Assembly: GCA_000934665.2 (NCBI GenBank)
Contig: KZ538385.1
Span: 62,001-126,000 of the forward strand
Length of the DNA: 64,000 bases
Origin: Catajapyx aquilonaris
Taxonomy: Eukaryota
Direction of reading: 5' to 3'
Each line of letters starts with the position of its first letter. Position 1 is the stretch's first letter. Below, piece after piece: positions 35,601-64,000 of this stretch. The notes below the pieces were generated by a model, which was not told the DNA's origin, did not search any database, and was given only the letters and a program-made list of their open reading frames with translations. The translations under genes and the position numbers were made by a program.

Positions 35601-37149
35601 CGACTGAATTACGAAATGGTTACGTATGTACCGGCATCTTGCCCAATTCGTGGCGTAGTTTCTCTAATCAAAAAGCATTGAACATTTCCGTTGGTTTCTG
35701 ATAGCGATATTTCCCCACGTCCAATAATGTGTCATGTAGGAAATTCAGCTATAGGCTTATTACACGCACACAGTCGCATGAAACAGGATGAATCATCTGA
35801 TTTTGCTCGACCCCTTACTCCATGAGGTCCCCCCCTATAGATAACCCAATTTTTTAGGTTACGATTGATATTTTGTTCCGTGTTCGAGAGAGATTACCAG
35901 TTTTTCGATCGGAGCCGTGAATCAACAGGAAATTACGTATTTCCGGCACGAAGTCATCTGCCGGTCATTTGGAAACGGGGTCATATTTTGGATGGCACGT
36001 GTCAATTATGAGTCGCAATTTGACATTCCGCGGAAAGGGGAAGCAAATGTGGTTGTAAAGAGTGACTCCTTACAACCACATTTGCTTGCCCTTGATAAGC
36101 TCCATACCTCACGTCTAACTTTAAACATCGCTTTATCTCCTCTCCGGCGCGAAAATTATCCTCCAGCAGTCAGCCAGAGCTCCCAACACATTATTCACAA
36201 CGTATAAGAAAATGTTAATTACCACCACCTTTTCCCTACCTCCCCCACCCACCCTCATCCGATAATGGCGTTCGCCTAATTGGGAACCGCCGACTAATTT
36301 ATCCGCCGGATCTGCGCTGACACTTACGAAAAAAAAAGACAATTGTCCATTGCGTTAAGCCGTTCTAGATGGGGCGTGTTTCATGTGCGTGTGTTTTTTT
36401 ATGTTGATGGGTGATAGAAGGGACGTCCAATAAATCTTGGCCCATCGGCAGCAGCTGGACCGTGCTCAGCGATACGCAGATAAAATAACGGCAACAGTCA
36501 GATCTAGCTGTCGATTAAATAGCTGATGGGACTCTGCATTGGATGGGTCGTTTAACTATATCTTTGAACCATCAGCACAGGAAGTGTGGCGGATGTTAAC
36601 CAGCAGTCAACCAAGGAAGTTGGAGAAAGCCAAAAGGCGATAAATTGTTATCAATATGTATATAAACATTTGAACAAGTAGGCGCTATATACTGTATGAT
36701 TGGCACGAATGCGCAAAGACCAGCTTTAGCGTTACTGTTCACGTTCGTTTCATCGTTTGTGCGGAGGAATTAATTAGAAAATTGCGGGGTTAATTTTTTA
36801 AAAATGGCAGAAGCATTATGCTGTCACAAAGAGTGAAGCTCGACGTCGTCATTCGGCGTAAAATTAAGCGGCTTAATTTCTACTAAAGAAGCTTGCGGAA
36901 TTTCTTGGGGTACAAGCACGCATAAGCTGTAATTATGATTGCTGCGGTTGAGTGAGCGCAGGGAACCGTGAAAAGATGACGATATTCCTTCCCTTTCCAA
37001 CTCGAGATGAAAATGCAATGTTGCTGAGGTTATTGTAGAGTTGGTAGACGATTTACCTTCTAATCAAGTCCCCCGGCAATAACGAGATGCGAGATAATTT
37101 CCTCATTAGTCTCAGGCAACTCTGAAGGAAAGAATCGAGCTTTTTACGC

Positions 37150-42083: not shown

Positions 42084-42436
42084 TATTATGCTATTCACGA
42101 GTCCTGGCCTGTTAGGCTCCTCCCCCGTCCTCCGCCCTCTGAAGGCGAGGTTGCCACGTCCGCGTCCGCCATGGCCTCACACGCCTGCCAGGAGGATGGG
42201 GGAGAGCACTTGGCAGCAGTGGATCGCATTGGGAAGGGGGGGGGGGGGGGGGAAANGGGGGGGACAACCAGGCCTGGAAATACGACGAACCACCTATCCC
42301 TTGTTGAGACCGAACCCCGCACCAATGGCTCCGACTCGCGAGAATCACGAGCATTCCAGGCCTGATTTCTTCCGCCGCTGACGTTGGGAGGAGGTAGGTG
42401 GAGCCTAATAGGCCAGGACTCGTGAATCGCATAATA
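42084..42436. mobile_element. MITE-like element with 37-bp terminal inverted repeats
   Basis: TATTATGCTATTCACGAGTCCTGGCCTGTTAGGCTCC (42084-42120) matches the reverse complement of 42400-42436 at 35/37 positions. GC-rich non-coding interior; outer ends are TA. Confidence 0.75.
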
Positions 42437-45400
42437 TGTGAATGGAAGCATCCCATTAGCAATTGAAAGGATAGGCATAGAAATGTTAACCCTTGACCTG
42501 ATATACAAAATTTCAATTCACCATAATACGACTAACTTTACCCGTCGATTTTGTGGGGGAGAAAATTCAGGATTTAATACCATGAATTTCGTTTTATTTA
42601 ATTACCTTTCCGTTCCTAAGCGGTAACTAACAGTCAGTTTTGGTATGGCCACCCCCCAGGGGAGTGACCACGAACCCCTGCTTGTTCCTAGGGTGGGAGG
42701 CATAAAACAAACAATTGCAATGTGCATGGAATGCCCCCCCCCNCCCCGGCTGTAAATTGAATGGGTCGGATTAAGTTGCCGTCATCACCGGATGTAAATG
42801 GATCTTGACGCTAATTGGCCTCCGAGCGTGCTGCCAATTCGGACTTAACAATCGGACCGCTGCAAAGTAACACCCCCTGTTACTCATTACTCGTTTGAAT
42901 TACATCGACGCCCTGTCAATGATTATATGCTTCGGGTATTTTTTTTTTTTTGCCCCGAAAAACCCAGCGATGACAGTGTTATTAATACGTGAGGGTCAGG
43001 ACCGAGCAGGTTTCAGTTTTAATCTTGTTATTTAATGGCGCTGTGATGGATACGCATAATCGTAACGACAAATTATGACTGCTATCTGCTCCATTCAATC
43101 GCATCGTAAACTCCGCATTATGGAGAACCATTTGTCATATTTTTTGGGGTGGGTGGGGTGTGGGGGACACTGGGTGGAGAATTGTCCAATTGCCGCTTCT
43201 TGATGGACATTTAGACTGATGGATACATTTTTAACGCCTTTTTGTTGCCAAAATTTTAGCCGAATTTTACCCCCCCAGCTCGGGATGTATTTTTTTTTTT
43301 GTGCCCCTAGGTCCATAATCAGTTTTGGCCGAATTCAATAGGGCAGAAGAGTGTATTATGACGTCATAACTCGGGGAGAAGCGAGGGTCGTGAACCTGTG
43401 TGAATGCAGGCAAGTGCTGCCGTATTTTGGGGAACAAAATGATGCCCTAACAGGTGGTGCAACGTGCGGTAAAATATTTTCGTGCGAAAAAGAGTGCGCA
43501 GAACATTTTCTGTAAATATTATTTCTACAGCCAGAGAATGGCACTGACATCACAAGCACGATTGTGACATAAAAGTTTGGTTAAACATTTTATTTTATTT
43601 TCATTACGTATATAACTGGTTGTGTATTAGCCGTTCGGTTGTTAACATTTTTTTTTTTGCTTAATTTTAATGCAATTTAATTGAAGCAAATTTGGTTACT
43701 ACATAGAGTAAACAATCCGTGGCAGTTTGTATGGAAATGTGACGCTTGCTCGGGGGTTTAACGTTTCTTCAAATTCCATTTTTGGGGGGCGAGGGCAGAG
43801 ACTCTCTAATGAGCGGTACCTGCACGTGGCGGGTTTAGCGCCGTTAAAATCTCAGTTTTACATACAAAGCGCGTCCTTTTCCTCTCATTTTTTTTTTACC
43901 CTCCCATCCTCCCTCGAGCTCTTGATAGCCCACCATTTGCAGAATTGTCCGTTTTGTCAAAAACCGCTTTTGCTGCAAACTAGCACGATCATTTTTGGCA
44001 AAGTACTTGGCATGTTGTACATTTAACGAGCGGCCCAAGCAGCCTGTAATTAGTCTTAATCATTTGGTGCGAAACCTACTGTACGCCACATGATGTTACC
44101 AGCAAGTGGTGACAACTGAGGCACTAGTAAATTTTGGGGGGGTTTTTTGTTGAATTATTCAGGGATGTGAATAATAGGTCCTCAGACGCACATTCTTTAC
44201 GGCTGGATTTTGCGGAGGCCGAATTTTTTTCCCCGAGGGGGTTCAAACATTATAAAAAAGAGCCCTTGGCCTCTCTCTGGGCTTACTCCAACAGGCTGCT
44301 TGGGCCTGGCCTTTGGGACCGTTTCCAAAGCATCGGACCTCTTGTCCAAGTCCAGCCTCTTGATGCCAAGTGGGCCGACCTTTGTGCTCAGTACACGACA
44401 GAAGGCCTCCCTGGAATCAGACCGAAAGAGACGTCGAGACACACAAGGAAGGTCGAGAGAGTTTAAAAAAAAAATGACAGAAATTTTGCGGAAGGAATCT
44501 AGCCTGTGCCTAATGGAGATTAGAGTTGCCCTTTATCTCTCTTGTCTGTGCCACTGGGAAACTACTGCCAACTAAACTTTCTGGTAGGAGGCCCCCCCAG
44601 CCCAGGGTGTTTTCAAAGGGAATAGTCTGGGTTGAATGTGTTGGGAAATACAAAGGTACAAATGATGCGGATCAAAAACGATGTTTGATCTGAGAATTGA
44701 TAGAAGGAAAAAGGGGGAGGGCTTCCAGGCAAAAAAAATATATAGTCGAGTCCTTTTTGGTGGGAGGTACGAAAAGTTAGAGGCGAAAATTTCAAAGTGA
44801 AGCGGATAGGCTTGGCTTTTACTTTGTGTGAATCGAATTTGTTTTATAGGTTTCAGATATGGGGCTGAAGAAGGAGGGGGAAAAAAGTATGAGGGAAGTG
44901 CAATATCCGCGACGTCAATAACAAGAGAAAATATGAGAATATTTTGATATTGTGAGATTATTGTTACATTTTTCCCCCAATCTGCAGTGTTAGACCTGCA
45001 TCACTTTTAAAAACAAAACACACACAGGGCGAGCCTACCTTTCTTTCCGTGGCTAAATAATTATTTCGCATTTTTGCGAAAGTGCGGGGTTGTTTCCCAG
45101 GCGTGTAAAACTTTCCTGTTGGGAAAACACCGCATCACATGAAAGCACCGCAGTTGACATGTACACAAGCCGCAAAAATTATTTTCACGGCGCAGCGCAA
45201 GTAAGCACCAAAAAAAAACAACAAGTACTGCATGGAAGTTGCATATACGGAAAAGTTTTGCATATTTTATTTTAAAAAGAGCTAGCTCATTATTTTCATT
45301 GTATGGCTATAGTATAAGCTACCCTGGTGTAATTTTAACTATCTGAATACTCAGTTACTTTTGTTTAAAAAAATTATTTTAACGATTTATTGAATCTGCT

Positions 45401-48400: not shown

Positions 48401-50413
48401 AGTCTGATCAAGAGGCGGAAAATTTTTCCAGTTATTTTATGGGGAAAAAGGTCCTGGATTATGCGCATAATTACATTTGCATATTCAAGCACAATATTTA
48501 TTTACGCTTTTATTTATTTACCCTTGATGGCTATAGTACAATACAGTGTGCACTACATCTGTACGGATACAAGTTGTATTTTTGTGCGTGGAAAGAGCCA
48601 GAGAATTAAAATTTATTAAAAAAAAAATACTGCGAACCCTGAGCCACTGTAGCGTTCAGTAATTAAGTTAACTAATTAATATACCATGTTTCAGATACTA
48701 TAAGCACCTAATATGATATAAAATCTGAACCAATGTTCCTGTAGCTCGCCCACCTGAACTCGACAGTTTCCGTGCACTGTTTTGCTTTGCATTGTGGCGT
48801 GTAATGTACTGTAACCTAATTAAATGGTTTTTAGCTACAGGGTAACACCAAAAGAATCATTTAAAAAGGGGGGGAGGAAAATGCGCACGTTTTGATTGGT
48901 TGCTATTATTGAGTTGCTTCATACTTTTAACTGGTTGTTAATAGTTAACTGCTGTTTAATTTTCTTCGTGATTTGACGCAACCCGCGCAGTAAATATTTT
49001 TGGTGACCTTTTTTTTTCATCCTGTGAGAGGAGCAACCTGCAGAGAACGAGTGTCTGGTTGCATAACTGGCAGGACACACGAGTAATATTGGTTCTAGAC
49101 GCAAGGGAGCGTGGAAAAATAAACTCCCAAGAGAAATATGATACTTGATTGGATCTGAGGTGTTTGCAAGGCAGGTCTCATATTTCCTATATCTATATAT
49201 ATATTTTTTCACTCGCTATATATATTATTTGTAAAAGTCCTGTGCTATAGCTTGGGGGGGGGGGGGGTCNCCGGGGCCTTTTGCCTCTTTCCTCTTTTGC
49301 CATCACCCGACGATCGATTTCCGGAGGCTCCCGGGGAGGAAGTTACGGGACAAGAAAACGCAGGGTTTGCCCTTGGCTTGAGAGGGGGGGGGAGGGGGGG
49401 GGGGAATCCTTTTTACTCATTCACGAGAGGTTAAGGATGTAAGATAGTTCGATAGTTTGGGATGGTAAATTATGCTTGAAACTGGTTGTAGGTCATGGTT
49501 GGAAAATTTAACAGTCTGTGTGTTTTGAGGCAGGAGCATTAGTAAGCGACAAAAACCGAGACCACCAAATCAAGCCGATTGATCTAGTACACGAGAACTT
49601 ACAAAGTATCATTGTGAATGGCTGTGGTGCGCACTTGGTTGCGATCGCAAAAAAAATCATATAAAATTGTGAAACATTAAAAAAAATCGCAACATGAACT
49701 TCGGAAAAAATTGGTTAAAAAATAAATGAAATGATGGCGAGCGTCAATTCCTTTGGGTGTGGTTATCAGCAAGGTGAATGGTAATCTTCTCAGACTCTTT
49801 TTCCCTGGAGATGCTGGGGGCCTCCCCAACCGAATTACTTCTGAACCGTCCAAGTGGGAAAGGGATCAGCACCTTTCCTTGTCCGACCAATGATACAATT
49901 TATCAACAGTGTTGTTTTTGGATCCTGCGCGGGATCGTTAAGAAAATTCTGCCATTGTTTTTGAAGACTTTGCTTTCAAGGAGGGAAGTTCATAGAGTGG
50001 GTAATAAAGGTCGGTAATGCGATATTAACCATTAGGGGCAACCGCCTCTGTACGCGAATGGTGCAAACACTGTTGAGGTTACGGTGTGAAATACTGTTGT
50101 TTGGTACGGCCCCTGGGTGCGCTGTAAAACTATAGTACTATGGAGGGTTTAGACACCCTCCCTGCGGATGTTTATCGCATGATGGTGTACTTACAGGGTG
50201 AGACGGAACTGCGAGATGGTCCAAACACCAACAGATAATCTGGCAACATCCATAGCTAGATCATACTTTAGTTACTGACTGTAGATAATTTTATACATTT
50301 TCTCAGTTAAAAATGTATCATTGATAACTAGGCACCAACTTGCCAAAATTGGGGAAAAAATTATGCAAAATTGCGAAACTGGAGAGAGAGACGCGGACCA
50401 GGCAGCGACATCC

Positions 50414-50466
50414 GACGGTGAAGTGCCGAAGTAAGACGGTGCTGAAGTAAGACGGTGCTGAAGTGA
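50414..50466 (+). repeat. Short tandem repeat GACGGTGCTGAAGTAA (~16 bp, ~3 copies)
   Basis: gacggtgaagtgccgaagtaa gacggtgctgaagtaa gacggtgctgaagtg. Confidence 0.8.
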
Positions 50467-51889
50467 AAGCGAGTCGCCACCCGGGAGGTGGCGCCCCACG
50501 CCCGGAACGGCGGAAATGGGAATTCCGTGGAAAGGTCGGGTTTTTTTTGAGGCGGTCGGCGTTTTTTTACGTTTTATAAATTCCCTGGACACTATTTTCC
50601 AAGAAAAGGTTTATTGCAAATATAGAAAACGCGGGTTAAATTTTGACCCCACTCCCAATGCTGTAGGCCGTACGGTGCGGGAGGAGTTGTGGGAACAGTC
50701 GTGTGTTAATACTAATATATATTCCAATCGTGCAAGCTGCGCGAACTGTCTTGCGCACGATGTTGCGGTCATAAAATTTTTCCCATCTAATACGTCCACA
50801 GTTGGGAGGAGTGTTTGGCAATGGTTTCACTCTGTAATAACTACACAAATTCACAGTCCAACCACCAATATTGTAACACAAAAAGGTTGGGCCACCCAGC
50901 ATATGGCCATTTGATTTTATTGTCACTCTGTGCTGATGTCAAATTTAGCGCATAAAAATATTCCCGGTCAGAGTAACAAAATTTCAGCATTGTTGATGTG
51001 TTTGGTGCTGATTTTCTCCCATTGGAGGGTTCGCTATTATTGGATCAAGCAATTTGTCCAGTGGTGAGAGAAAAATCGGAGCAGTTTGGCACGTTGGGCA
51101 CTTATTCAGACGCAACAATTGCAATTGCGGTGTGACTTTTTGGGTCATTTAATGCGAGGTCCCCTCTTGGGATGGGTTGGAACTATAGTGAATATCAAAC
51201 AAATTGCTGGTGATGAAATACTAATAGAGCTAATATGTAAGCCAAGCTTACAGGTTCACTGTAGGTCGATTATGCTTGCGGGGTTAATGAAAAGCAATGT
51301 TGAGGAAGCAGAAAGTTTTGTGAATAGAAATGGGGAAGATGAAATATTATGATCTTATAAGGTAGGAGAAGATTGGGTCTGCTAAAAGTTAGCTCCGTTT
51401 TGCTTTTATGTGGAAAATGACATTTCCACTTTATGTGGTTGGGGCAAAATGGAATTTCTAAGCGCTGATTTTTTTTTTTTTTGCTGTAATTGCATTCTTT
51501 GTAACTGGCGAACACAAGTTTTGCGTTTGTTATTAAGCCTCTCGTTTAGGTGGAGTGAACATACATGAATGCGGGGTGTATTTTGAATTTCCCAGATGTG
51601 AATGAAAATCTGTTCATGTCAGGTGCTTCAAACGGTAAATTAAGCTTGAATGCTGCGACAAGTATGACTTTGATGTTAGCGCTTGATGATTTGTAACCTA
51701 CAGTATAAACTGGTTAATTATACAGAATTGAACAGTTATGTGTGCTGGTAAAGTCAAAGTTTAATTAGGCTGTTGCGTGCGTATCAACTTTTAATGGATT
51801 TTCTTTTAGCCCGGCATAGGCCATGTGTACCTTACAAACCCAAATAATGTAGTTGCAACATCCTGATGAGGTTCTTCTCTTGTTTGCAG

Positions 51890-52244
51890 GAGCATAGGCT
51901 GTAACTTGCATTGACACCTGCCATGCTGAGATTGTGTCCTGCCCACTGCGACCATGCGTGATGTGCTGGCCCGTAGTGCAAACTCCCGACCTCGGATTCT
52001 CACCAGTGCAAGATGGCTGAGGCGCTAACCTACTGGAAGCACAACCGGTGGAGAACATTTGAGAGTGTCGGGAGATAGTCCCCAACTTATAAAATGATTA
52101 GCAGTGAGCCGACAAAGTAACCACACACCTGGTGCCATTTTTTTTAAAACACAAGAAACTTGTGCCATATAGCGTCCAAGTGGTGCCAAAAAAGTGTACA
52201 TATACAGTGCGAAGGGGAGAGGAGATGGGCTAAGCACCCTGCGC
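51890..52244 (+). promoter_or_regulatory. 5' UTR part of the first coding exon, with six upstream ATGs/uORFs
   Basis: Strong acceptor ctgatgaggttcttctcttgtttgcag| ending at 51889. uATGs at 51923, 51954, 51961, 52013, 52094 and 52225 each terminate before 52245. Confidence 0.6.
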
Positions 52245-52429
52245 ATGATGTACGATGAACACCGTCGTCCACTGCTGCAGGATGTGGAGGGGCAGGGCTG
52301 GGGCAGGCTCAGGTCATGTCCCACCGCTCGTCTGGGCACGGTCAAGAGATGGGTGGCAGCCTCCCTGGTCCTCAGCCTGATGTCCCTCTTCTACCTCACA
52401 TACTATGTCTCCAACTCGCATTCTTACAG
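52245..52429 (+). CDS. sfl: NDST coding exon 1 (cytoplasmic tail + signal-anchor TM helix)
   Basis: [11 protein letters not shown]...[23 protein letters not shown]. Donor AG|GTAAGC, phase 2, matches the next exon. The start ATG is inferred as the first in-frame ATG. Confidence 0.85.
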
Positions 52430-55400
52430 GTAAGCATCTGAAACTAATCTGGAAAGCATATCATTACAGTATGATATTCACAATATGTAATTAGAAATTT
52501 TCCTTTGATACGACCAGTAACAATTTCATTGTATTATTTAACGTCAGGATGGGAAAGAGCTTTTTTAATGTGCCTCTTTACATTGACTTGGCTGCTCAAT
52601 GTTGCGGCGACACAATCACCTTACGCCATTGCCATTGCCGTTAAGCTCACCGTAAGTTTCCAAGGGAAAAATGGCGGGATAGGTCAAAACTACTGGCCAT
52701 TATGTGCAGCGTTAAGGCTCAACTGTGCTTCCCGACAAAATTGCATCGTTACTTTGAAGAATCACATTTTATCATGGTCAGCGGCTGTGTTACAAGAGTT
52801 GGCTCAAAATTGCTTGGTGTACTTTAGATTTAGCAGAATAATTTCACTAGATGTTAAATGTGTCCTAAGTAAGCTAATGAATGCGTAATACTAGTGTAAT
52901 GCAATTTGCCAATTTTGGTTACCCAGTACATAATTACGAAGAGCGTATGACTCTTGGAGCACGTTGTGTTTCTCTTTAATGCTTTCTTGCCTCCAGCTCC
53001 ATTGCCCTTTTAATAACCCCCGGCTGCAGAGGGGTTATTAACAAGAATCGATGGTTCATATTCTCATTTTATTTGTGTAACCTCTAGTTATGGCGCAGTA
53101 TATTCTTTTTTTACTCTTCATTTAACGACTGAAACGATAGGAACCTAATAGCAAACAAAGGTCAATGAGGCACATGTACAGTAATCGAACAAGGGCCCAT
53201 GCAGAGCTTTATAATCATCCCGTCAATTGTCTGATTGATCACGAGGCTTAGCCTTGTAATAACCCCCCCTCGTTTGGATTTGACTTGATTGACTGATGGA
53301 TTGATTGGCGTCGGTGCAGCTTCATCCGAGGGTCGCGCCCGGAGCCGTCGATACGCTGTGCCCTGCTGGGATCCGGGACAAGGAATCCCATCGGGGGCAA
53401 CCACCACAACACGGAGGCCCAGCTGCGGATAGACCCTCGAGTCCTTGTCTTTGTGGAGACTGCCTATTCCAGGCTCGGGAGGGAGATTGCTGAGCTGCTT
53501 GTGCACAACCGAATGAAGTGAGTCTTTTTGGTTTAACTCATGCATCATATTGGTTACACTGTTGTCTTTTCTCAAGGTACAAAGTGGAAGTGGCAGGGAA
53601 GTCTCTTCCGGTGCTGACCAACCTGGACAAGGGCAAGTTCGGGGTGATAGTGTTTGAGAACTTCACAAAGTACCTGCACATGGACAAATGGAACCGGGAG
53701 CTGCTGGATAAGTACTGTCGGGAGTACCACGTGGGGCTGGTCGGATTCATGCCCCCCCAGGAGGAGAGCCTGGTGGGGGCCCAGCTCAAAGGGTTTCCAG
53801 TGTACGTCCACACAAACCTGAAGCTGAAAGATGCATCGGTCAATCCCGCCTCGCCTGTTTTGAGGCTCACCAGGGCTGGGGACACTGCGTGGGGCCAGCT
53901 GTCTAACGAAGACTGGACCGTCTTCTCGCCCAATCACTCCACATACGAGCCGCTAGCATGGGCCAGCTTGTTGTCTGACGGAGGTTACGTCGATCCAGAG
54001 GCATCAAAGACGCAGCATATCACTGTCCTACAGGTGATTTGGTCTGTCATTACTGTAGGCCTTCATTACCTGATGAAATGACATAAGACGCTCCCCCATT
54101 TCAGTAGATCATATTCGGAGGGGGGGAAAAGTTTTTAGTGCAATAATTTCACATCCAAGATGCATGGCGATTTTTTGAGCAATTTTTTTGAGGGGAAAAC
54201 GCCGTCATACTGTATATGAATATCTGAATGTTACGCAAAGTTAATATGAAGAATGGAGCAACCAGCTGTTATGTGGAACCACGTAAACGGTTAGTTCAAA
54301 ATATTAATGCGGCTAGAACAAACATAATAAATGAGATGGACAGTCGAGCAATGTGTACAGAGCAAAGCCGCATTTTGCACCCACGTACAACAAAAATGAG
54401 CACGCATTTCATTATTATTCATTGATTCGGAGAGGGCAAAATCCACTTTCAGATGACAATAGAAATATATTGTTCCTCTGTGTAATATGCGCATTGCCAT
54501 TGATGGACAATTACGGTTTAAAAAAAAAAAAACTGCGTGTTTCGAAAAAGCATATATTGATCATTACAAGCCTTTTTTTGGGGAGTTGATTAGCAGCCTT
54601 CAAAGTCTCTCAGATTTTTGTGACTAGTAGAATAACAGTAACGAGGCAGTGAATATAAAGCATTGTGTGATGTATTCATATTATGTAGCCAGCCAGTTTG
54701 TCCACTTGTTCTAGTGAACTTTTGTTACCTATGCTGAGGGGAATTTGCTTTCAAATTATTGGCTAAACATGTACAGATTCCGAGCTCTGACAATGATGTT
54801 CGTTAAAAACGAATCGTTAAAATGCAAATGGTTGACTTGTGACAATGAATGTTGGCGAATTGTATAGAGTTTGTTGAGTCTACTCTGCGACTAAGTGTTA
54901 CTTGTTTGTAGAGTAAAAAGCACTTGATGACATGCAATGATGTAATTATTGTTTTTTTAAGGATCACGGCTTGTACGACGACATCCAGCGCATCCTTTTC
55001 GGCAGCGGCCTCCGCTTCTGGCTTCAAAGGCTTCTCTTCCTGGATGCAATGTCTTACCTCAGTCACGGCCGACTCAGTCTCAGCTTGCAGAGGTTCCTTC
55101 TGGTCGATGTGGATGACATTTTTGTTGGAGAAAAAGGAACGAGACTCAAGCGCGAGGATGTTCAAGTATGATGAGCTGGAACAATACTTTCCGCCATTAC
55201 CATACGTGCAAGTTTCACTTAAAATTTGGAGCGATCCATTGTCTATTTAAAAGGTGGAGAGGATTGAAAGTACTTTTATGATCAGAAACTTTGCGGAAAA
55301 CGAAGCAACTGCTCCTGACTTGTTTGTGACGTATTAACGATTTACTGTTCATGTAGTAATTATAACGTTAAAGACACCTGCACAGTGCATATGATACGTC

Positions 55401-58400
55401 TGGTTTTTTCCTCTCTTGCTCTCCTATAACGTAAATTGTGAGCTCATCTGATTTGTTATTTGATTATGGAAAGTGGGATGTTTTCATATTGTCAATTCAG
55501 AGAGTGGGGGCTTGCAATGTCGATTTCATTAACGTGGAGTAATGCTGTTAGCGTCACTGCTGGAGTGAGTCTGTGTATTGACATTTGCACTACATGTGGG
55601 AATGGCTGCACTTTCCAAAATGGGAAATATATGTGCAGGTAGTTATTTCTTTTAAATATTACGTACTGGCCATTGCAGGCAATGATAAACGGCCAGGAGC
55701 GTCTTCAGAGGTTAGTACCTGGCTTCCGATTCAACCTGGGCTTCTCTGGGAAGTACTTCCATCACGGTACGCCAGAAGAAAACGCGGGAGATGACATGCT
55801 GTTGGGTAAGCTGACTCCGACACTTTGCCTCTCACTTGTGCGCATATTTTAATCCCTTTTTTAAATCTTCCTAAATACAGTAGGAGAAACAAATTTTTTT
55901 TTCTTCTTTTTTGGGTCCAGGTTGTGGGGAGAATATAAAATTTAATGCATTTGATGGTTGATCCCGATAATAATTTGTGTTTGCAGCACATGCACAAGAT
56001 TTCTGGTGGTTCCCACACATGTTTAGACACACCCAACCCCACCTGTACAATGTGACCCAACTCGTTCAAGGCATGACGTGGAATTTTAATTTCGCAAAGG
56101 TAGTTTGGTGTGCGAATATTTTCTGCAACACCACTTGGATTTTTTTATTTTGAAGAGATTACTCTTTGTAGTTTGCACTCCCCTTGTTTTTGCGTTTATG
56201 TTTTTTTTTTCTGTCCACTTTGGTTTTGGGATACGGGATGGGGGCACTCTAACCACACTCACAACGTAGCGTTTGACTTGCTTCCACATGAAAGTACCCT
56301 CTTCTTTCAGCACTTGCATTCACTTTTTTTTTTAAATATTTATATATTTGGTACGCACATGTGTTGAAGTGAGAGAGAAAACTTTTTTTTTCTTCTTCGA
56401 TGGCTCAATTCCCATTTGTAGAACACGCAGATGAGTTTATGTGGTTCGGTCACATGTGGAATCATCAACAGCCTCACCTGTATGAAAACGATACCCAACT
56501 CCAGCTAGACATGAACCTCAATAAGAATTTCGCAAAGGTAAGCTTTCCCGAAAGGCACCTTTTTGAGACGTATTAGTCGAACCTTGGGGCTTATGTTCCG
56601 TTAAGTTTGTTATGGGGCCACCGTTTGCATGTTTGTGTCGGTAAATCAGGAATATTTTTAAATGGGAAACGTTACAGTGCTGAAAGAAGATTTATTTTTT
56701 ACGTAGCTAGTGGCATGGTGCACGGTGTCTTGATTAACTAATATTAACGGATTAATAATCTGCATGTCGATATGTCGTCACCCTGCAGACAATTATGTAG
56801 CTTAGCCAAGTGCACTGGACATGTTTGAGGCTCTATAGGTTGCCATGATTAATGGCAGTGCTCTGCGAAATTAGGGGGGGCTTAATTGAGATTTGTTTGC
56901 TGTGGATGGGTAAGCCCTTGACACATTCGAAACAAAACATTACGCAAGTTCAAGTTTACGTGATTATTGTACAGTGTTTATCTGCGAGTTAAAACACAGT
57001 GTAATGTCCATCAGCGAATAACGTTACTTTTGTGGATTAGCGTCATGTCATGTTAAACTGATGATCTTCTCTGATGCTAATAGAGCCTGAAATGTGTACT
57101 TTGTAACACACCTAGTGCAATCGACCTGAAAGCCATTACTGCATAGAGATGAATGTCAAATTAACATTCATTAGAGGACTTGTAGCGTTCAGGTCGAAGC
57201 TGCAGGATTCACATTGCCGCCACCCTGATAAATAATGCAAACTTCCCTTCCTTCCGGGCCGCATCTACAAAAGGAACATGGGATTCCAGTAGACTCGGGC
57301 TACTCGGTGGCCCCTCACCACTCTGGGGTGTACCCTGTGCACGAGCCCTTGTACGAGGCTTGGCGCAAAGTGTGGGGGGTTAGGGCCACCAGCACGGAGG
57401 AGTATCCGCACCTGAGACCAGCCAGGCTCAGACGAGGGTTCGTTCATCGTACAGTCATGGTGCTTCCGAGACAGACTTGCGGGTTGTTCACGCACACCAT
57501 CTTCATAGAGAGGTATCCAGGTGGTAGGCAGAAGCTGGACGAGAGCATCCAAGGCGGAGAGCTTTTTCAGACCGTCGTGTACAATCCGGTAAGTTCTACA
57601 GCCTTTCGCGGCTTATTGCAAATACTGATTTTCGCTTTACCTGCAGATCAATGTCTTCATGACCCACATGTCAAACTACGGGAATGATCGGCTGGCCATG
57701 TACACGTTTGAGTCCGTGGTTAAGTTCCTTCAGTGCTGGACCAATCTGCAGTTGCAGACCTTACCGCCAGTGCAGCTTGGAGAGAAGTACTTCCAGATGT
57801 ATCCAGAGGAAGTTGATCCTGTATGGGGGGTGAGAAATGCTTCTCTTACGCTATTGTTTTCTGGGCTATACCATTATGGTTACGTCTGTTTCATACTGTT
57901 TCATATTTCTGAATGTGACCTGTTTCAACTATGTAACATCTAAATCTGATCCGATTCAGAATCCATGCGACGACCAGCGTCACACACGCATCTGGTCTCC
58001 CAACAAGACGTGTGACCAGCTTCCGCACTTCCTGGTGATCGGCCCGCAGAAGACTGGAACCACTGCTCTGTACACTTTCCTGGCCATGCATCCTGCAGTG
58101 TCTTCCAACTTTCCCTCCCAGGAGACGTTCGAGGAGGTGCAGTTCTTCAATGGGAAGAACTACTACAGAGGGCTGGACTGGTACATGCGATTCTTCCCTG
58201 TTCCCAAGAACTCAACCGGTGGGCATGTTCTGTTTGAGAAGAGCGCAACATACTTTGAGAGTGAGCTTGTTCCGAGAAGAGCACATGCACTCTTACCAAA
58301 GGTATGTGCGGTTGAATTTAACTAGTTGTATGCATTACGTGCAGGGCTAATACTTCGTGGTTTACAGGTGAAGGTGGTGACCATCCTGATATCACCAGCG

Positions 58401-59706
58401 AAGAGGGCGTACTCGTGGTACCAGCACATGAGGGCGCATAATGACCCAGTGGCACAGAACTATACTTTTGCGCAGGTCATCATGGCTGGAGAAGCCGCAC
58501 CTAAGCAACTTAAAGACCTTCGGAATAGGTGTGCAATTTTTTCGGAGCGTGCAAGACCATTTTGTTCTTCACCGTTGTGTGCACCGTTGCAACCTTCTCA
58601 TTTCAGGTGCTTGAATCCCGGTAAATATGCTCAGCACCTAGAGCGATGGCTAACGTACTACTCCCCTCAACAACTGTATATAATCGATGGGGAGGAAGTT
58701 CGAAACAACCCAGTGGACGTCATGAACAAGTTGCAGCAGTTCCTGAAGCTGAAGCCCTTCTTCGACTACTCGACCAAGCTTAGGTACGGGACACTTGGCT
58801 TGCGAATTCTAGGGCATGTTATTCTAACGAGATGGTTAATTCGCAGGTATGACCCGAGCAAAGGGTTCTTCTGCCAAGTGATCAACTCGGACCATACCAA
58901 ATGCCTGGGGAGGAGTAAAGGGAGACAGTATCCGGCCATGGATGAAAGGGCATACAAGTACCTGCAGGTACGATCTCGGCTCGCATGAGTGTAACGCGTA
59001 CTGAGAGAATTTTCGTTGATAAACTTTGCTGCGAAAGTGACAGAAATTGATGAGTTTATTGTTCGTTGTTGGTACACCATCCATAAGTAAAATTAATCAA
59101 AGTTAATTAATGATCTTGAAGTATTTTTGATGATTTCAAATAACAATGAATAACAATGAATAACAATTATCAACAAGTAACAACTATCAACAATGAATAA
59201 ATATTATCAACAAATCACAAATTATCAACAATAAAAAGCTTATCGACAAAAAAACAACTTATCGTCAAATAATTGTCAACAATGAATAACAATAATTATG
59301 AAATAGATAACTATCAATAATTAATAACAATAATTATGAAATAGATAACTATCAATAATTAATGACATCTATTGTAAAGAATAATTAGCTAATAACTATT
59401 GTAAAGAATAATTAGCTGACATCTACTGTAAAGAATAATTAGCTAATAACTATTGTAAATTTTAATAAATTACTTATCAAGATAATTGTAAATAACATTT
59501 ATTACTAATTTATAACTGATATTAATGATATTAATAACTACTACTTATTATTAATGATAGTAATAATTTTTAAACATGTTTGTCTTGTACTTTCCCAGAT
59601 GTACTACATGCCTCACAACACAGCGTTGGTGAAGCTGCTGAAGCGTTTGGACTACCCGATACCCCAGTGGCTTAAAGAGGACTTGAGCGATAGGATAGGG
59701 ATGTGA
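52245..59706 (+). CDS. sfl: Bifunctional heparan sulfate N-deacetylase/N-sulfotransferase (NDST/sulfateless), whole spliced CDS: join(52245..52429,53320..53517,53577..54033,54962..55165,55679..55805,[55987..56099 OR 56422..56537],57274..57588,57647..57829,57960..58301,58368..58528,58607..58783,58847..58967,59599..59706); 896/897 aa
   Basis: All introns are GT-AG and phases match throughout. The protein has an N-terminal type II TM anchor, [12 protein letters not shown], the deacetylase DVDDIFVG motif, [13 protein letters not shown], HMxxHx[44 protein letters not shown], the 5'-PSB motif [18 protein letters not shown], the 3'-PB region [12 protein letters not shown] and [10 protein letters not shown]. 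These are recognisable NDST family motifs. Confidence 0.97.
53320..53517 (+). CDS. sfl: NDST coding exon 2
   Basis: Acceptor tgcag|; [13 protein letters not shown]...[31 protein letters not shown]; donor |GTGAGT. This frame is not in the ORF track. Confidence 0.93.
53577..54033 (+). CDS. sfl: NDST coding exon 3
   Basis: [53 protein letters not shown]...ITVLQ; follows a 59-bp intron; donor CAG|GTGATT. Confidence 0.95.
54962..55165 (+). CDS. sfl: NDST coding exon 4 (deacetylase DVDD motif)
   Basis: [34 protein letters not shown]...[23 protein letters not shown]; 204 nt, phase 0-0. Confidence 0.95.
55679..55805 (+). CDS. sfl: NDST coding exon 5
   Basis: [42 protein letters not shown]; acceptor ttgcag|, donor G|GTAAGC phase 1. 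Confidence 0.95.
55987..56099 (+). CDS. sfl: NDST alternative exon 6a (mutually exclusive candidate)
   Basis: Acceptor tgtttgcag|; (A)[37 protein letters not shown]; donor AAG|GTAGTT; 113 nt, phase 1 to 0, no stops. Confidence 0.85.
56422..56537 (+). CDS. sfl: NDST alternative exon 6b (mutually exclusive candidate)
   Basis: Acceptor cccatttgtag|; (E)[38 protein letters not shown]; donor AAG|GTAAGC; 116 nt, phase 1 to 0, no stops. Confidence 0.92.
57274..57588 (+). CDS. sfl: NDST coding exon 7
   Basis: [30 protein letters not shown]...[18 protein letters not shown]...[13 protein letters not shown]...YNP; AAG acceptor, donor |GTAAGT. Confidence 0.95.
57647..57829 (+). CDS. sfl: NDST coding exon 8
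   Basis: [34 protein letters not shown]...DPVWG; follows a 58-bp intron. Confidence 0.95.
57960..58301 (+). CDS. sfl: NDST coding exon 9 (start of sulfotransferase domain)
   Basis: [13 protein letters not shown]...[18 protein letters not shown]...FEEVQFF...FEKSATYF...ALLPK. Confidence 0.96.
58368..58528 (+). CDS. sfl: NDST coding exon 10
   Basis: [24 protein letters not shown]...LRN; donor AG|GTGTGC phase 2. Confidence 0.93.
58607..58783 (+). CDS. sfl: NDST coding exon 11
   Basis: [28 protein letters not shown]...[20 protein letters not shown]. Confidence 0.93.
58847..58967 (+). CDS. sfl: NDST coding exon 12
   Basis: [40 protein letters not shown]; donor CAG|GTACGA. Confidence 0.94.
59140..59560. 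repeat. AT-rich minisatellites in the last sfl intron
   Basis: (AATAACAATG)n; 38-bp unit x2 (59285-59360); ~27-bp unit CTATTGTAAAGAATAATTAGCT x3-4. Confidence 0.85.
59599..59706 (+). CDS. sfl: NDST terminal coding exon 13
   Basis: Acceptor tttcccag|; [35 protein letters not shown]; typical NDST C-terminus (PxWLxE). Confidence 0.93.
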   Translation: MYYMPHNTALVKLLKRLDYPIPQWLKEDLSDRIGM

Positions 59707-61126
59707 CAGAAAAAGGACGTTTTGAGAGTACGTGTCGTACTGCATAATTTTAAAAAGAAATTGAAATAAGAGACTTTCAGAGAGAGGGAGAGAGAGAGAG
59801 TAGGAGAGAAAGAGAGAAGAAGAAAAAAAATCACATGAGGTCTCTCGCTTTTTGACAATACTTGATCCCAGGGAGGAGCTATTTGCATGTTGAATACATA
59901 CATAAGGGAGAGTGTGTGTGTGTGTTTCTTTTTTTTTTTTTGTATAAAATAATTGTCAAAGAAATGAAGCTAAAAAAAAATTGAGTGTCTGCCACTCATG
60001 TTGCTGTTCTTACGAGGGCTGATTTTATTGCGTGAGCGACTTTTCAGTAAAGGGCGTATTTATTTGTGGTATTGTTGGGAAAGAAACAATGCAGTTTAAA
60101 ATGTTCAGTGTTGATAATCTTCGTGGTCTGTTTGTTCATTGAAGTCCTTTTTTTTTTTTCAACAATACTCATCCACTGACAATGGGGATCGAAAGAATGT
60201 ATTTTTGTGCTCCGAGGGATTGCCAATCAATGCATTTAATTTATTTCGTCAAAGTCCCAAACCCGGTAACAATCAAATGCTATGTGTCATAATGTAGAGA
60301 TGAGTACAGTTTTATTTGTTATTTTTTTACTGTTATTTTTTTTTAAAGGTGCAGTCTTAACTTTTTTGGCATTCCTCATTTATTATTTCGTCATACAATG
60401 GTCTAATTAATTGTTCTGGTGTGTTGTACAAAATATAAAGAAATCTAATGCTGCTTTTTTCGTTCTTGCCAAAAAAAAAAGTATTTGTCCTGCAAAAATA
60501 ATTATTGAAGGTACAAAAGAGTCTATGATGCAACAGAGTAAAAAGTGTATGATAGTATGTTGTTAAGCTTTCTTGCTTTTTTCCGCCTGATTCTCCGTGG
60601 TCTCGTCCTTTTTCGGTAGTTAACATAGATCCGAAGCGTTTGCACTCAAAAGTGTCCTCCACATAAATGAGGTAGTTTTTACATATGTACTGTGTACTGT
60701 GCCATCTGGTGTTTTTAAAAAAAAAATTAGGAAAAAATATTATATATTGGGTTTTGTGGGATGATATAAAATGTAGAGGGCATTTTTGAGTTCAGACTAG
60801 TGCTTTTATAAAAATCAGACACTAAGTGTCAAAATTTATGTGTGAGCCCCAATTATTATTATTTTTGTCTTTGTTGTAAGTTGTAAGTTCTACCAAAACG
60901 AGGTTGTAAAAAGGTAACTAATGTAGTTTTTCCGTGGGGGGTAAACAAGGGTGTTTTTTTTTTCCCCATCTTAGAAGAGGTTGCGAGTAAGCTCACGAAA
61001 TTTCACGGAGCAAAGTTTTTCAAACCAAATTTTGAGAGGGTTAGCCTAGAGAAATTTCAATTCAGCTTGGTCGCAACCTCTTCTTTCAGAGCATTTTTGC
61101 GTTAAAAAAAAAATGATGATGATGTG

Positions 61127-61132
61127 AATAAA
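61127..61132 (+). terminator. Candidate polyadenylation signal AATAAA for sfl (3' UTR ~59707-61150)
   Basis: First canonical AATAAA I could find after the stop codon. It is followed ~17 nt later by CA, a genomic A-run, then a GT-rich stretch (gggttggtcttgtt). Confidence 0.45.
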
Positions 61133-61817
61133 AAAAGATGGTCATTTACAAAAAAAAAAAAAAAAGGGTTGGTCTTGTTAATTGAACGTTTGTTATTGAA
61201 GAAAACTTGCGGTTCTCCCGATCATCTCGACACGACCAAAAAGAAAATTTTCTGGAGCATTGGACTCAGGCTTAACTCCCACCTAGTGTTGTTGTTGTTG
61301 ACATTAAGATATAATTATTTAATTATGCATGAATTTCATTAATATTATCGTGAATTATTCAGTGCAATCCATAATTTCACTGAAACTTTGTATTTTAAAT
61401 TTAATGATGATCTTAGCTAGGATTTGATTAATTAATGGCAATATTATTTAAATTATTTTTCATTCATTCATTACACTCACAGCATATTCCCAAGATGGGG
61501 TTACCAGCGATGACCAGGAACAATCCACCTCGCCATCTCGTACGAACAGTTTAATGAATCCTCTATTGACTGAAATAATAATTATATTAGAATATGGTTA
61601 ATTAATGAAACAAAATCATTAATTGAATAATTATTATTACTGACACAATAGTGCAATCCATCATTTCACTGAATTTAAATTTAAATTTAAAGATCTAGAT
61701 CAATTAACATTTAAATAATTACGAAATAATAATTACCACATTAGAATGTGATTAATTAATGAAACTATCATTTATTAAATTAATATGAATTATATACATA
61801 ATAGTGCCAATCCATCA

Positions 61818-62116
61818 CCAAAGCAGTTTGGAGTAGGGGATATGGTGTCCGCCTGCTAATCGGGAGGTCCTGGGTTCGAATCCCGGAGCCGGCAACTCTG
61901 ACCGTGGTTTTCTGTGGTTCCCCACGGTCCCTCCAGGAAAATTCCGGAGTTGTTTCCGTAATTAATAGGCCACAGCCGCTTCCTTCCGCCCCTATCCTAT
62001 CCCAAAGAGCACAGTAAAAATGAAAAGCAAAGAGTTCCAGGCAAAACAAAACTGAAAAACGTCTTCCCTAAAGAGCCGATGGCCGATGGCTGATAACGGG
62101 GTATGAATATTATTAT
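61818..62116 (+). mobile_element. tRNA-derived SINE with 16-bp target-site duplication
   Basis: A-box-like TGGAGTAGGGG and B-box GGGTTCGAATCCC (61872-61884). Body GTGGTTTTCTGTGGTTCCCC...CCTCCAGGAAAATTCCGG...AGGCCACAGCCGCTTCCTTCC resembles arthropod SINE bodies as I recall them. (TAT)n tail. Identical flanks TAGTGCCAATCCATCA at 61802-61817 and 62117-62132. Confidence 0.88.
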
Positions 62117-62612
62117 TAGTGCCAATCCATCATTTCACTGAAACTTGAAATTTATGTTAATCTCACCTTATCACGTCGCTCTTAGGATATGATTAAATAA
62201 AATATTTAAATAATTGCGAAATAATAATTATCCCAGAATATGGATAATTTATGAAACTATCTTAATTAAATAATTGCGAAATAATGATTATCTGAGAATA
62301 TGATTAATTAATGAAACAATCTTAAATATAATTGCGAAATAGTAATTACCTTAGAATATGAATAATTTATGGGTTTGCGAAATAATAATTTAAGAATACG
62401 ATGAATTAATGAAACGATCTTAAATAATTATGAATTATTGTCATTATTGTGCAGATCCATCATTTCACTGAAATTCAAAATTGATTTTAATAATCCCATC
62501 GTAATTAAATATTTACATAATTGCGGAATAAGAATTATCTCAGAATATGATTAATTAACGAAACAACCTTAATTAAATAATGGCGTAATAATATTATATT
62601 ACAATATTATTA

Positions 62613-62850
62613 ATTAAGTACAGCCCATCGGGTACGGTAAATAAATAAAAAATTAAGTACAGCCCATCGGGGTACGGTTAATAAAAAATAAATAAAATAT
62701 GATTAAGTACAGCCCATTGGGATACGGTAAATAAATAAATGAAATATTATTAATTAAGTGCGGCCCATCGGGATACGGTAAATAAATAAATATTATTAAT
62801 TAAGTACAGCCCATCGGGGTGCGGTAAATAAATATATAAAATATTATTAA
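62613..62850 (+). repeat. Five tandem copies of ATTAAGTACAGCCCATCGGGGTACGGTAAATAAATAAA (~40-50 bp period)
   Basis: Copies start near 62613, 62652, 62702, 62753 and 62799. Confidence 0.9.
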
Positions 62851-63060
62851 TTAATGTAACAGTCTTAATTAATCATTATGAATTATAATATTGTGCAATC
62901 CACACATAATTTCACTGAAATTTGAATATATTTAATTTAATCCCATATCTTACGATACGATTTAACCAATGAGATAATCCCATTAATTAAATTACCACGA
63001 ATTATTCAATTTATAGTGCAAATCCGCAAGTTCATTAAATTTTAATTATAGTTAGTACAA

Positions 63061-63125
<65 letters not shown>
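63061..63125. repeat. (ATT)n microsatellite
   Basis: About 21 perfect ATT units. Confidence 0.97.
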
Positions 63126-64000
63126 GGTTTTTTGCTGTTTTGAAATGAGCGCGCCTTGAAGCGGAGTGAGGGTGCGGATGTTCTCCATTGCCCGCTTTCC
63201 TCGAATGGCGAACAGACGCGGCCGTGGCAACTTCACTCCCGTTCCTTCCGCTTTTGTGGTTGGCATCATTCTCCAAGATGGACGCCTCTCCGCTCGTCGC
63301 TTCCCTCCCCCTCGTCTCCTCAGCCTGACCCTTTTTCCCTTCTTAGTGCCGCCCGTCTCTCGTTTTTAACCCCCTTTGACACACTCCCTCCTCGCCAGGA
63401 GGTCACTCATTCAAGCATTCGGAGGTGACTCGCTTTGAGTCGCCACAACTAGTTGGAAGGACGGCAGGTGATGTAACACGTAGGCTTAAATAAGTCGGGG
63501 CGGGAGGGTGGGTGGGTGGGGTTGTGGGGGGGGAAAAAAAGGAACAAAATGAAAATTGCGCTAATTGCAATTACTGCACATTAAGGTTCATGTTAAGGTG
63601 CGTTGCCCCCCGGAACAGTACCTCAAGTGTATTGGGAGCTCCACGGCTTAATACACCGGACTAGGCCTGAGAATTTTTTTTTGCCCCCACAGGTACAATG
63701 GACACACAACATGCAGGGCATTGTTCTAATCGCTTTTAGTAGGACACGGAACCATATGCTAGCATAAGAGGAACACAGGCCCCTATTCACATTTGTCGAG
63801 ATTTTTCCCCCCAGTTTCATTCGGGACTAGGCCTGAGATTTTTGTTGTTTTTTTTTTGCATTAGAATCGCAGGGCGCAATGTGCAGCGCAACGTACAGCG
63901 CATGTTCATGTCCTCCTTACATGGAACGTTGTTTGCATAAAAAGGAACAAAACGGGTCAATGACCTTTTATGTTCAATTTCATGGCACATATTTGGCTCT

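Follow-up and report, generated by a model that had tools for sequence, protein, structure and literature searches.

A tandem pair of frame-locked candidate mutually exclusive exons for the deacetylase metal-binding segment in an NDST gene of Catajapyx aquilonaris

NDST carries out the first, pattern-setting modification of heparan sulfate and, to our knowledge, invertebrates have a single NDST, with vertebrates having diversified into four. Could an animal with one such gene obtain two versions of the deacetylase metal-binding site by splicing? This question is raised by a stretch of 64,000 nucleotides from Catajapyx aquilonaris (assembly GCA_000934665.2, contig KZ538385.1, positions 62,001 to 126,000 of the forward strand), referred to here as the window, with positions counted from its first letter. 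Between 52245 and 59706, on the plus strand, the window encodes one complete NDST (sulfateless-type) gene with 13 coding positions and GT-AG borders throughout. Between coding exons 5 and 7 of this gene are positioned not one but two homologous exons, 6a and 6b, with AG/GT borders and the same phase, and these are candidates for mutually exclusive exons (MXEs). The exons involved are as follows.

55679-55805, plus strand: NDST coding exon 5, ending in phase 1 (TGG/gtaagc), from tblastn and the gene model; PF12062 positions 25-70
55987-56099, plus strand: exon 6a, 113 nt, the divergent copy, with sequon NVT and donor AAG/gtagtt, from translation, tblastn and PF12062
56422-56537, plus strand: exon 6b, 116 nt, the canonical copy, with sequon NDT and donor AAG/gtaagc, from translation, tblastn and PF12062
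57274-57588, plus strand: NDST coding exon 7, starting in phase 0, the remainder of the deacetylase domain; PF12062 positions 105-205, 184.4 bits

The gene model was built from tblastn with the NDST of Rhodnius (P0010) plus reading of each junction. It places 1171 nt of coding sequence ahead of exon 6, hence the entry in phase 1, and its product is an open frame of 896 amino acids using 6a or 897 using 6b. The acceptor side reads ...tttgtgtttgcag at 6a, the exon being followed by gtagtt, and ...cccatttgtag at 6b, followed by gtaagc. Each copy has a single open frame out of three, and this is the same genomic frame in 6a and 6b; the codon split with exon 5 supplies the first residue (G/CA, alanine, in 6a; G/AA, glutamate, in 6b), and the two end in a common sequence, AATTTCGCAAAG, whose only exact copies in the 64 kb are these two. 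The encoded segments are identical at 23 of 37 residues (62%) and at 74 of 111 nucleotides, they find each other by tblastn within the window at E of about 1e-11, and no third copy of the exon was found in the window by the same means. They differ around the metal site (PHMFRHT in 6a versus GHMWNHQ in 6b), by a one-residue deletion before the sequon in 6a, and by aromatic changes beyond. If both exons are included, the first stop is met at codon 457, within 6b, with seven exon junctions downstream; if neither is included, it is met at codon 427, in exon 7. As either copy alone leaves the frame open, and both or neither lead to a premature stop, the pair is correctly described as frame-locked. 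Overall, 6a and 6b are adjacent internal exons that are homologous, similar in length, alike in phase and splice-site type, free of in-frame stops, and unproductive when jointly included or jointly skipped, which is the anatomy by which tandem MXEs are recognized.

As to what the exon encodes, both copies align with the same part of human NDST1, whose structure (chain 8cd0_A) carries the full-length numbering: the match covers residues 381-416 for 6a (E 1.2e-5) and 382-416 for 6b (E 1.3e-7). Both also match the deacetylase family PF12062 above its cut-off of 25 bits, 6a at positions 69-108 (37.7 bits) and 6b at positions 67-108 (54.0 bits). These matches and the identity between the copies indicate homology far beyond chance. 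According to the cryo-EM work on human NDST1 (PMC10864358), the calcium ligands of the deacetylase are D320, H389 and H393, the likely base and acid are D319 and H529, alanine mutants at all five positions are inactive, and N401 shows density for the first N-acetylglucosamine (GlcNAc). The equivalents of H389 and H393 are present in 6a (PHMFRH) and in 6b (GHMWNH), and the sequons, NVT and NDT respectively, align with N401. By the alignments the gene holds the full catalytic set, with the remaining members in two further exons.

54962-55165, plus strand: NDST coding exon 4, with VDVDD, corresponding to D319 (the base) and D320 (a metal ligand) of NDST1, aligned to 8cd0_A 269-335
57647-57829, plus strand: NDST coding exon 8, containing the counterpart of NDST1 H529, the general acid, aligned to 8cd0_A 523-582

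An earlier note on this DNA had been made from the letters alone. The coordinates, lengths, phases, borders and peptides that it gave for 6a and 6b prove exact on reading and translation, and its statement that both or neither exon breaks the frame is borne out by the stops in the full model. It had also taken the block for the His-x3-His segment of NDST, placed the DxDD aspartate in exon 4, and seen both histidines, QPH and a sequon in both variants, all of which agree with the alignments described above; the numbering and metal role that it gave for H389 and H393 are confirmed by the NDST1 work as far as its text is available (PMC10864358).

The question then becomes whether 6a is in use. 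The alternative that survives best is that 6a is a silent or decaying duplicate, a pseudo-exon, with 6b having kept the function and 6a either no longer or at no time productively spliced, its intactness being due to limited time or chance; a frame of 37 codons would, after all, stay open by chance in about 17% of cases, (61/64)^37. What speaks against this alternative is the manner in which 6a has changed. In a family alignment of 154 distinct NDST segments 17 columns are conserved at 90% or more, and 6b keeps 17 of the 17, 6a 16, including both histidines, QPH and the sequon, despite 14 amino acid differences between the copies. The one exception in 6a is a phenylalanine at the equivalent of W391, which is found there in 2 other sequences as well, and 13 of the 14 substitutions that separate 6a from 6b sit in variable columns. 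With random placement over 37 positions, at most one change in the 17 conserved columns has P of 0.009-0.004 for 10-11 changes, and of 0.07 if 7 changes are assumed instead. These two counts correspond to two choices of outgroup: with five outgroups of the 6b type, 10-11.5 changes fall on the branch to 6a and 3.5-5 on that to 6b, and with P0100, a segment of the type FWWF, the numbers are 7 and 8. At the nucleotide level, 6a has no stop, its only indel is an in-frame one of 3 nt, and its AG/GT borders are intact in spite of 37 nucleotide differences, which are bunched in few codons and unevenly spread. Identity over 37 codons is 30, 25 and 19 at the first, second and third positions, and Nei-Gojobori estimates of nonsynonymous and synonymous divergence are 0.36 and 1.12; the ratio, 0.32, is a pairwise dN/dS for 6a and 6b. 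The retention of 16 of the 17 conserved positions (P about 0.004-0.009) points to past purifying selection on 6a, and the sequence argues for an exon that has been evolving fast, with its catalytic core under purifying selection for most of its history. A recent loss of 6a use may be compatible with the same pattern.

A number of observations weigh in the opposite direction, and most of them favour a pseudo-exon. Against the five outgroups of the 6b type, the 6a branch is two to three times faster. On a family profile built without 6a, 6a scores 65.8 bits and 6b 76.4 bits, 6a ranking 147th of 156, and three normally constrained positions, mostly D/E, L (88%) and K/R in the family, are occupied in it by G, W and F; 6a does outscore the corresponding stretches of two long predicted NDST proteins (P0048, 61.5 bits, and P0036, 57.5 bits). 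Its splice signals are weaker, the acceptor being without the long T-tract of 6b (the homologous tract is 70 nt from the 6a acceptor) and the donor, AAG/gtagtt, without a G at +5; several constitutive donors in this NDST gene are no better than that of 6a. Database searches returned no orthologue or isoform of the 6a type, nor any protein with a junction of that type. A word-index search with 6a gave no candidates; a HMMER search of representatives gave 52 matches at E of 1e-3 or below, none more than 63% identical; none of 132 pattern matches to the 6a type in metagenome contigs was confirmed; and in the ESM Atlas 6a found a generic HSNSD-CE cluster alone, at 0.78.

The same searches speak clearly on 6b. 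All 14 candidates in its word-index search are NDSTs of arthropods, with identities of 66-77%. Exon 7 as query gave 1243 proteins, and in the best 120 of these, by local comparison with BLOSUM62, 116 are nearer 6b, one (from a fish) is nearer 6a and 3 are without the segment, a distribution that also weighs against the use of 6a; five of the 116, one from krill and four others, have a segment of the FWWF type. By these comparisons 6b is the canonical, normal form of exon 6. Annotated isoforms also tell against 6a, as no alternative exon-6 segment is present among those of 5 insect species: the segment is identical within each species for Ischnura (X1/X2), Vespa (X1/X2), Dendroctonus (X1-X3) and Cimex (X1-X3), and in three of four isoforms of Nicrophorus. 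The fourth Nicrophorus isoform (P0197) is one residue off (K to E), and does not represent an alternative exon. The duplicated arrangement is thus, by the isoforms of these five species, not a general insect feature. The whole protein of the window is 70-77% identical to insect NDSTs (Ischnura, Rhodnius, Drosophila and others), the closest whole protein in the collections being at 77%, and this distance bounds all comparative tests of 6a. In a tree of whole proteins it falls outside the winged-insect clade (support 100), and the three-way split between it, that clade and a group holding malacostracans is not separated further. The collections do not include this protein itself, and by the tree the animal is an arthropod that does not belong to the Pterygota. 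The literature, as judged from listings, contained no paper tying NDST or sulfateless to mutually exclusive exons. The supplements of PMC3228551, PMC5740500 and PMC8373072 contained no sfl or NDST entry in text that is possibly incomplete, with the Drosophila list of Hatje and Kollmar (2013) outside this coverage, and NDST1-4 have no entry in the supplement text of two human catalogues of MXEs and tandem exon duplications.

How often do candidates of this kind prove to be real? In the available part of a human survey (PMC5740500), 1,722 intronic MXE candidates were newly predicted, and 654 of these passed validation when one junction read was required and 358 when three were; the majority were thus not validated, which lowers the expectation for 6a and favours a pseudo-exon. 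In the same source, 60% of the validated human MXE clusters, 377 of 629, have lengths that are not multiples of three. With 62% identity between the copies, short introns and an intact catalytic core, the case of 6a and 6b is stronger than that of the average candidate, and we accordingly rate their productive, mutually exclusive use as fairly probable on the genomic evidence. A silent or decaying 6a, for its part, is a serious alternative but a doubtful one. That 6a is spliced into mRNA, and that an enzyme with the 6a variant is active and has different properties, are inferences from sequence, and so is the suggestion in the earlier note that one gene may yield two deacetylase variants.

The explanation that best accommodates these data, the mutually exclusive use of 6a and 6b, would run as follows. 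A tandem duplication would have hit the exon for the His-x3-His metal-binding motif (NDST1 381-416) in the single-copy NDST gene of a non-pterygote arthropod, with the two copies now acting as mutually exclusive exons. The 6b copy, canonical in sequence and better equipped with splice signals, would yield the default enzyme of 897 residues, and 6a, with the weaker acceptor tract and donor, a variant of 896 residues that would differ solely in the 37/38 residues around the catalytic metal. Exclusivity would be enforced at least via the reading frame, both or neither bringing in an early stop, with the product truncated or degraded. As to further mechanisms, the 322 nt of intron that separate 6a from 6b make steric hindrance unlikely. 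The donors of both exons appear to be of the GT type, without a U12 consensus. Of possible relevance are two complementary arms in the introns flanking 6b, along with a third element, a candidate docking site, downstream.

56300-56314, plus strand: 5' arm of an inverted repeat, perfect over 15 nt, 107 nt upstream of 6b, from sequence search and folds
56676-56690, plus strand: 3' arm of the same repeat, perfect over 15 nt, 139 nt downstream of 6b, from sequence search and folds
56861-56872, minus strand: within the intron preceding exon 7, a one-mismatch complement of the 12-mer shared by the ends of 6a and 6b; weak candidate docking site

The arms are complementary at 15 of 15 positions, an arrangement that in sequence is the one known for looping-out, with the pairing itself predicted. 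For each arm, the sole other occurrence in the 64 kb, even with two mismatches, is its partner, and the stem closes the 6b domain in both the minimum free energy (MFE) and the centroid structures of 431-nt and 941-nt folds. For the 431-nt fold z is -2.72, and when the 1.47-kb region was simulated 2000 times under a Markov model, two of the runs contained a perfect repeat this long. The stem, if formed, would loop 6b out and favour the splice from 6a to exon 7, and may thereby permit the use of 6a. Two findings count against this part of the explanation: the 941-nt fold overall is not unusually stable (z -0.21), and the window has 6 perfect inverted repeats of at least 15 nt within 1 kb, which makes the stem around 6b less exceptional by this empirical background. 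The docking site is a weak candidate, as its pairing with the 12-mer is absent from the MFE fold; the 12-mer has 5 matches in the window versus 0.8 expected, two of the five being exons 6a and 6b themselves. Further perfect inverted repeats, of 16-21 nt and with arms within 1 kb, are found upstream of the NDST gene (20933-21093, 36041-36087, 42093-42427 and 44032-44306), and these may be transposon termini or hairpins.

Two other alternatives are weaker. One is that 6a is mainly a regulatory 'poison' cassette, which, when included with 6b, would shift the frame and lower NDST via nonsense-mediated decay, no second enzyme being made. Joint inclusion would indeed lead to the stop at codon 457 with its seven downstream exon junctions, and reads joining the two MXEs were seen in 83 of the 377 human clusters with lengths not divisible by three, as given in the available part of the survey (PMC5740500). 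Such a cassette, however, needs no coding conservation, and 6a keeps the catalytic and family-conserved residues precisely in the frame in which it would replace 6b, so that we hold this role to be very unlikely. The last alternative, an assembly artefact in which two haplotypes or collapsed reads of one exon were placed in tandem, might be entertained given the 13 N positions or short runs in the window, but the last N is at 49270, with none in 49271-64000, the copies are just 67% identical in DNA with a 3-nt indel, far beyond allelic divergence, and their downstream flanks are unrelated, making it improbable in the extreme.

Less can be said on when the duplication took place. In a tree of the exon-6 segment (53 rows, 38 columns), 6b is placed among hexapods, beside Ischnura, and 6a on the backbone, nearest to P0100 (65% identity). 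Forcing 6a and 6b to be sisters gives p of 0.61 in the approximately unbiased (AU) test, forcing 6a into the hexapod/branchiopod group gives p of 0.82, neither is rejected, and both constrained trees have likelihoods above that of the quick free search. Divergence at silent positions is uneven along the exons: among codons for shared residues (Met and Trp left out), the copies agree at 5 of 12 in the 5' half, which looks saturated, and at 8 of 8 in the 3' half (Fisher p 0.015). The 3' halves (56055-56102 versus 56493-56540) show no synonymous difference at shared residues, and their last 12 nt are identical; the same half also contains seven codons with one to three differences each. The identity in the 3' halves suggests either constraint at the nucleotide level or partial gene conversion. 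Outside the exons, the downstream flanks give an alignment score of 9 versus a shuffle mean of 10, and one upstream block stands out.

55879-55917, plus strand: T-rich intron block, 39 nt, sharing 77% identity with the pyrimidine tract of 6b (56368-56406); score 21, shuffle mean 11.3, reached by 0 of 300 shuffles

This block is possibly a remnant of the duplicated unit. With neither constrained tree rejected, synonymous divergence uneven and the intron block still 77% identical, either of two histories fits: a lineage-specific duplication followed by fast change in 6a, or a pair of greater age whose 3' end has been subject to constraint on its nucleotides or to partial conversion. Where the earlier note had spoken of an old, selected duplication, the selection is supported by the 16 of 17 conserved columns, and the age is not decided by a tree of 38 columns. 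A more specific version of an old origin would have a pancrustacean pair, in which 6a represents an ancestral type FWWF..HTQPH, the 6b type was fixed in winged insects, springtails and branchiopods, one copy was lost elsewhere, and the metal-binding module is still switched by splicing here. A krill protein has the FWWF..HTQPH type too, and so do four Logan proteins grouping with it in the tree. We consider this version unlikely; if true, it would mean two deacetylase chemistries, distinct in metal preference, processivity or substrate, in place of the paralogues on which vertebrates rely.

Two sequences from outside the window may be mentioned in this connection. P0015, a Logan contig of 4016 nt and the best match of the HMMER search with 6a, has a frame of 313 residues with two tandem NDST His-x3-His segments, FWWFPHQWRHTKPH... 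and FWWFPHSWAHSQAH..., about 20 residues apart, the first of which clusters with that of the nematode Romanomermis culicivorax (P0036). Here the same exon may have undergone a tandem duplication of its own, independently, in a distant animal. P0026, an ENA contig of 34878 nt, has a frame of 76 residues with a very divergent segment, FWWFGHIFNHAQPHL...QCMTDNVNFAK, without the sequon; in common with 6a it has F at the position of W391, a shorter spacing and an ending Q-x-M-T-x-N-x-NFAK, and it might represent an additional exon of the 6a kind from another arthropod. The two hint, as leads and not as evidence, that the exon-6 segment of NDST has been duplicated more than once in animals.

The remainder of the gene is as follows.

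52245-52429, plus strand: NDST coding exon 1, with a putative start ATG and signal-anchor helix, from tblastn with the Rhodnius protein and the open frame; the start codon is inferred
53320-53517, plus strand: NDST coding exon 2, from tblastn and the gene model
53577-54033, plus strand: NDST coding exon 3, HSNSD_N domain; Pfam PF25119, 205.5 bits
57960-58301, plus strand: NDST coding exon 9, where the sulfotransferase domain begins; PF00685
58368-58528, plus strand: NDST coding exon 10, from tblastn and the gene model
58607-58783, plus strand: NDST coding exon 11, from tblastn and the gene model
58847-58967, plus strand: NDST coding exon 12, from tblastn and the gene model
59599-59706, plus strand: NDST coding exon 13, ending at the stop codon, from tblastn and the gene model

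PF25119, PF12062 and PF00685 fall on successive exons, in the order HSNSD_N, HSNSD-CE, sulfotransferase within one polypeptide. Introns are of 58-130 nt in the 3' half of the gene and 181-928 nt in the 5' half; five are short, 58-78 nt (53518-53576, 57589-57646, 58302-58367, 58529-58606 and 58784-58846), alongside introns of 500-930 nt, and the alternative region is within the long-intron half. NDST is the sole recognisable gene in the window: of 175 stop-to-stop frames of at least 75 residues, 81 were compared with Pfam, and the matches are to these three domains alone and are confined to 53.5-59 kb. Rfam gave no matches across the window. No Pfam family was found in positions 1-52000 among the 68 long frames tested (extending to 52885), and this part is either a large gene-poor flank or holds 5' non-coding parts of NDST. 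An antisense frame at 55734-56144 (minus strand), of 137 residues without a stop, covers exon 5, the intron and 6a; neither it nor the neighbouring open reading frames match a Pfam family, and it is taken as a chance occurrence and not as a gene. A trinucleotide repeat at about 63050-63150 gives rise to long runs of N or I in minus-strand frames at 63042-63365.

In conclusion, 6a and 6b are, mechanistically, a standard candidate for MXEs of the frame-shift class that originate by tandem exon duplication, and what is unusual is their target, the His-x3-His metal-binding motif of an invertebrate's only NDST. Insect Mhc, Dscam1 and 14-3-3zeta are examples of tandem-duplicated mutually exclusive exons. 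With known tandem MXEs, as characterized in the available parts of the human survey (PMC5740500) and in the WebScipio criteria (PMC3228551), the pair shares adjacency, near-equal length, phase, splice-site type and a place in the same structural part, and in having lengths not divisible by three it belongs, by the available part of the former source, with the commonest human class (PMC5740500). In known MXEs exclusive use has been seen, whereas 6a and 6b are a candidate pair known from genomic sequence alone, and, unlike known MXEs, they target the catalytic metal-binding motif of a Golgi enzyme of glycosaminoglycan synthesis. Human NDST1 (PDB 8CD0/8CCY/8CHS; Mycroft-West et al., 2024, PMC10864358), as far as its description is available, is like the gene in the window in possessing HSNSD_N, HSNSD-CE and Sulfotransfer_1 with the same catalytic residues; for the human enzyme no swap of the H389-H393 segment is reported, whereas the window gene has two genomic versions of it. 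Insect sulfateless/NDST, in the isoforms of the five species compared, has one version of the segment, to which 6b is 66-77% identical.

If 6a is silent, the locus would be an ordinary relic of exon duplication. If 6a is expressed, one gene would give two enzymes whose differences fall precisely at the catalytic metal site, amounting to a domain swap made by nature that bears on what tunes N-deacetylation, and splicing would have taken the place of gene duplication in glycosaminoglycan biosynthesis. The vertebrate NDST1-4 provide a functional parallel, being several forms of an enzyme that act on the same substrate with a differing balance of deacetylase and sulfotransferase activities. The vertebrate forms are duplicates of the whole gene, whereas in the Catajapyx gene at most one module of 37/38 residues would differ.

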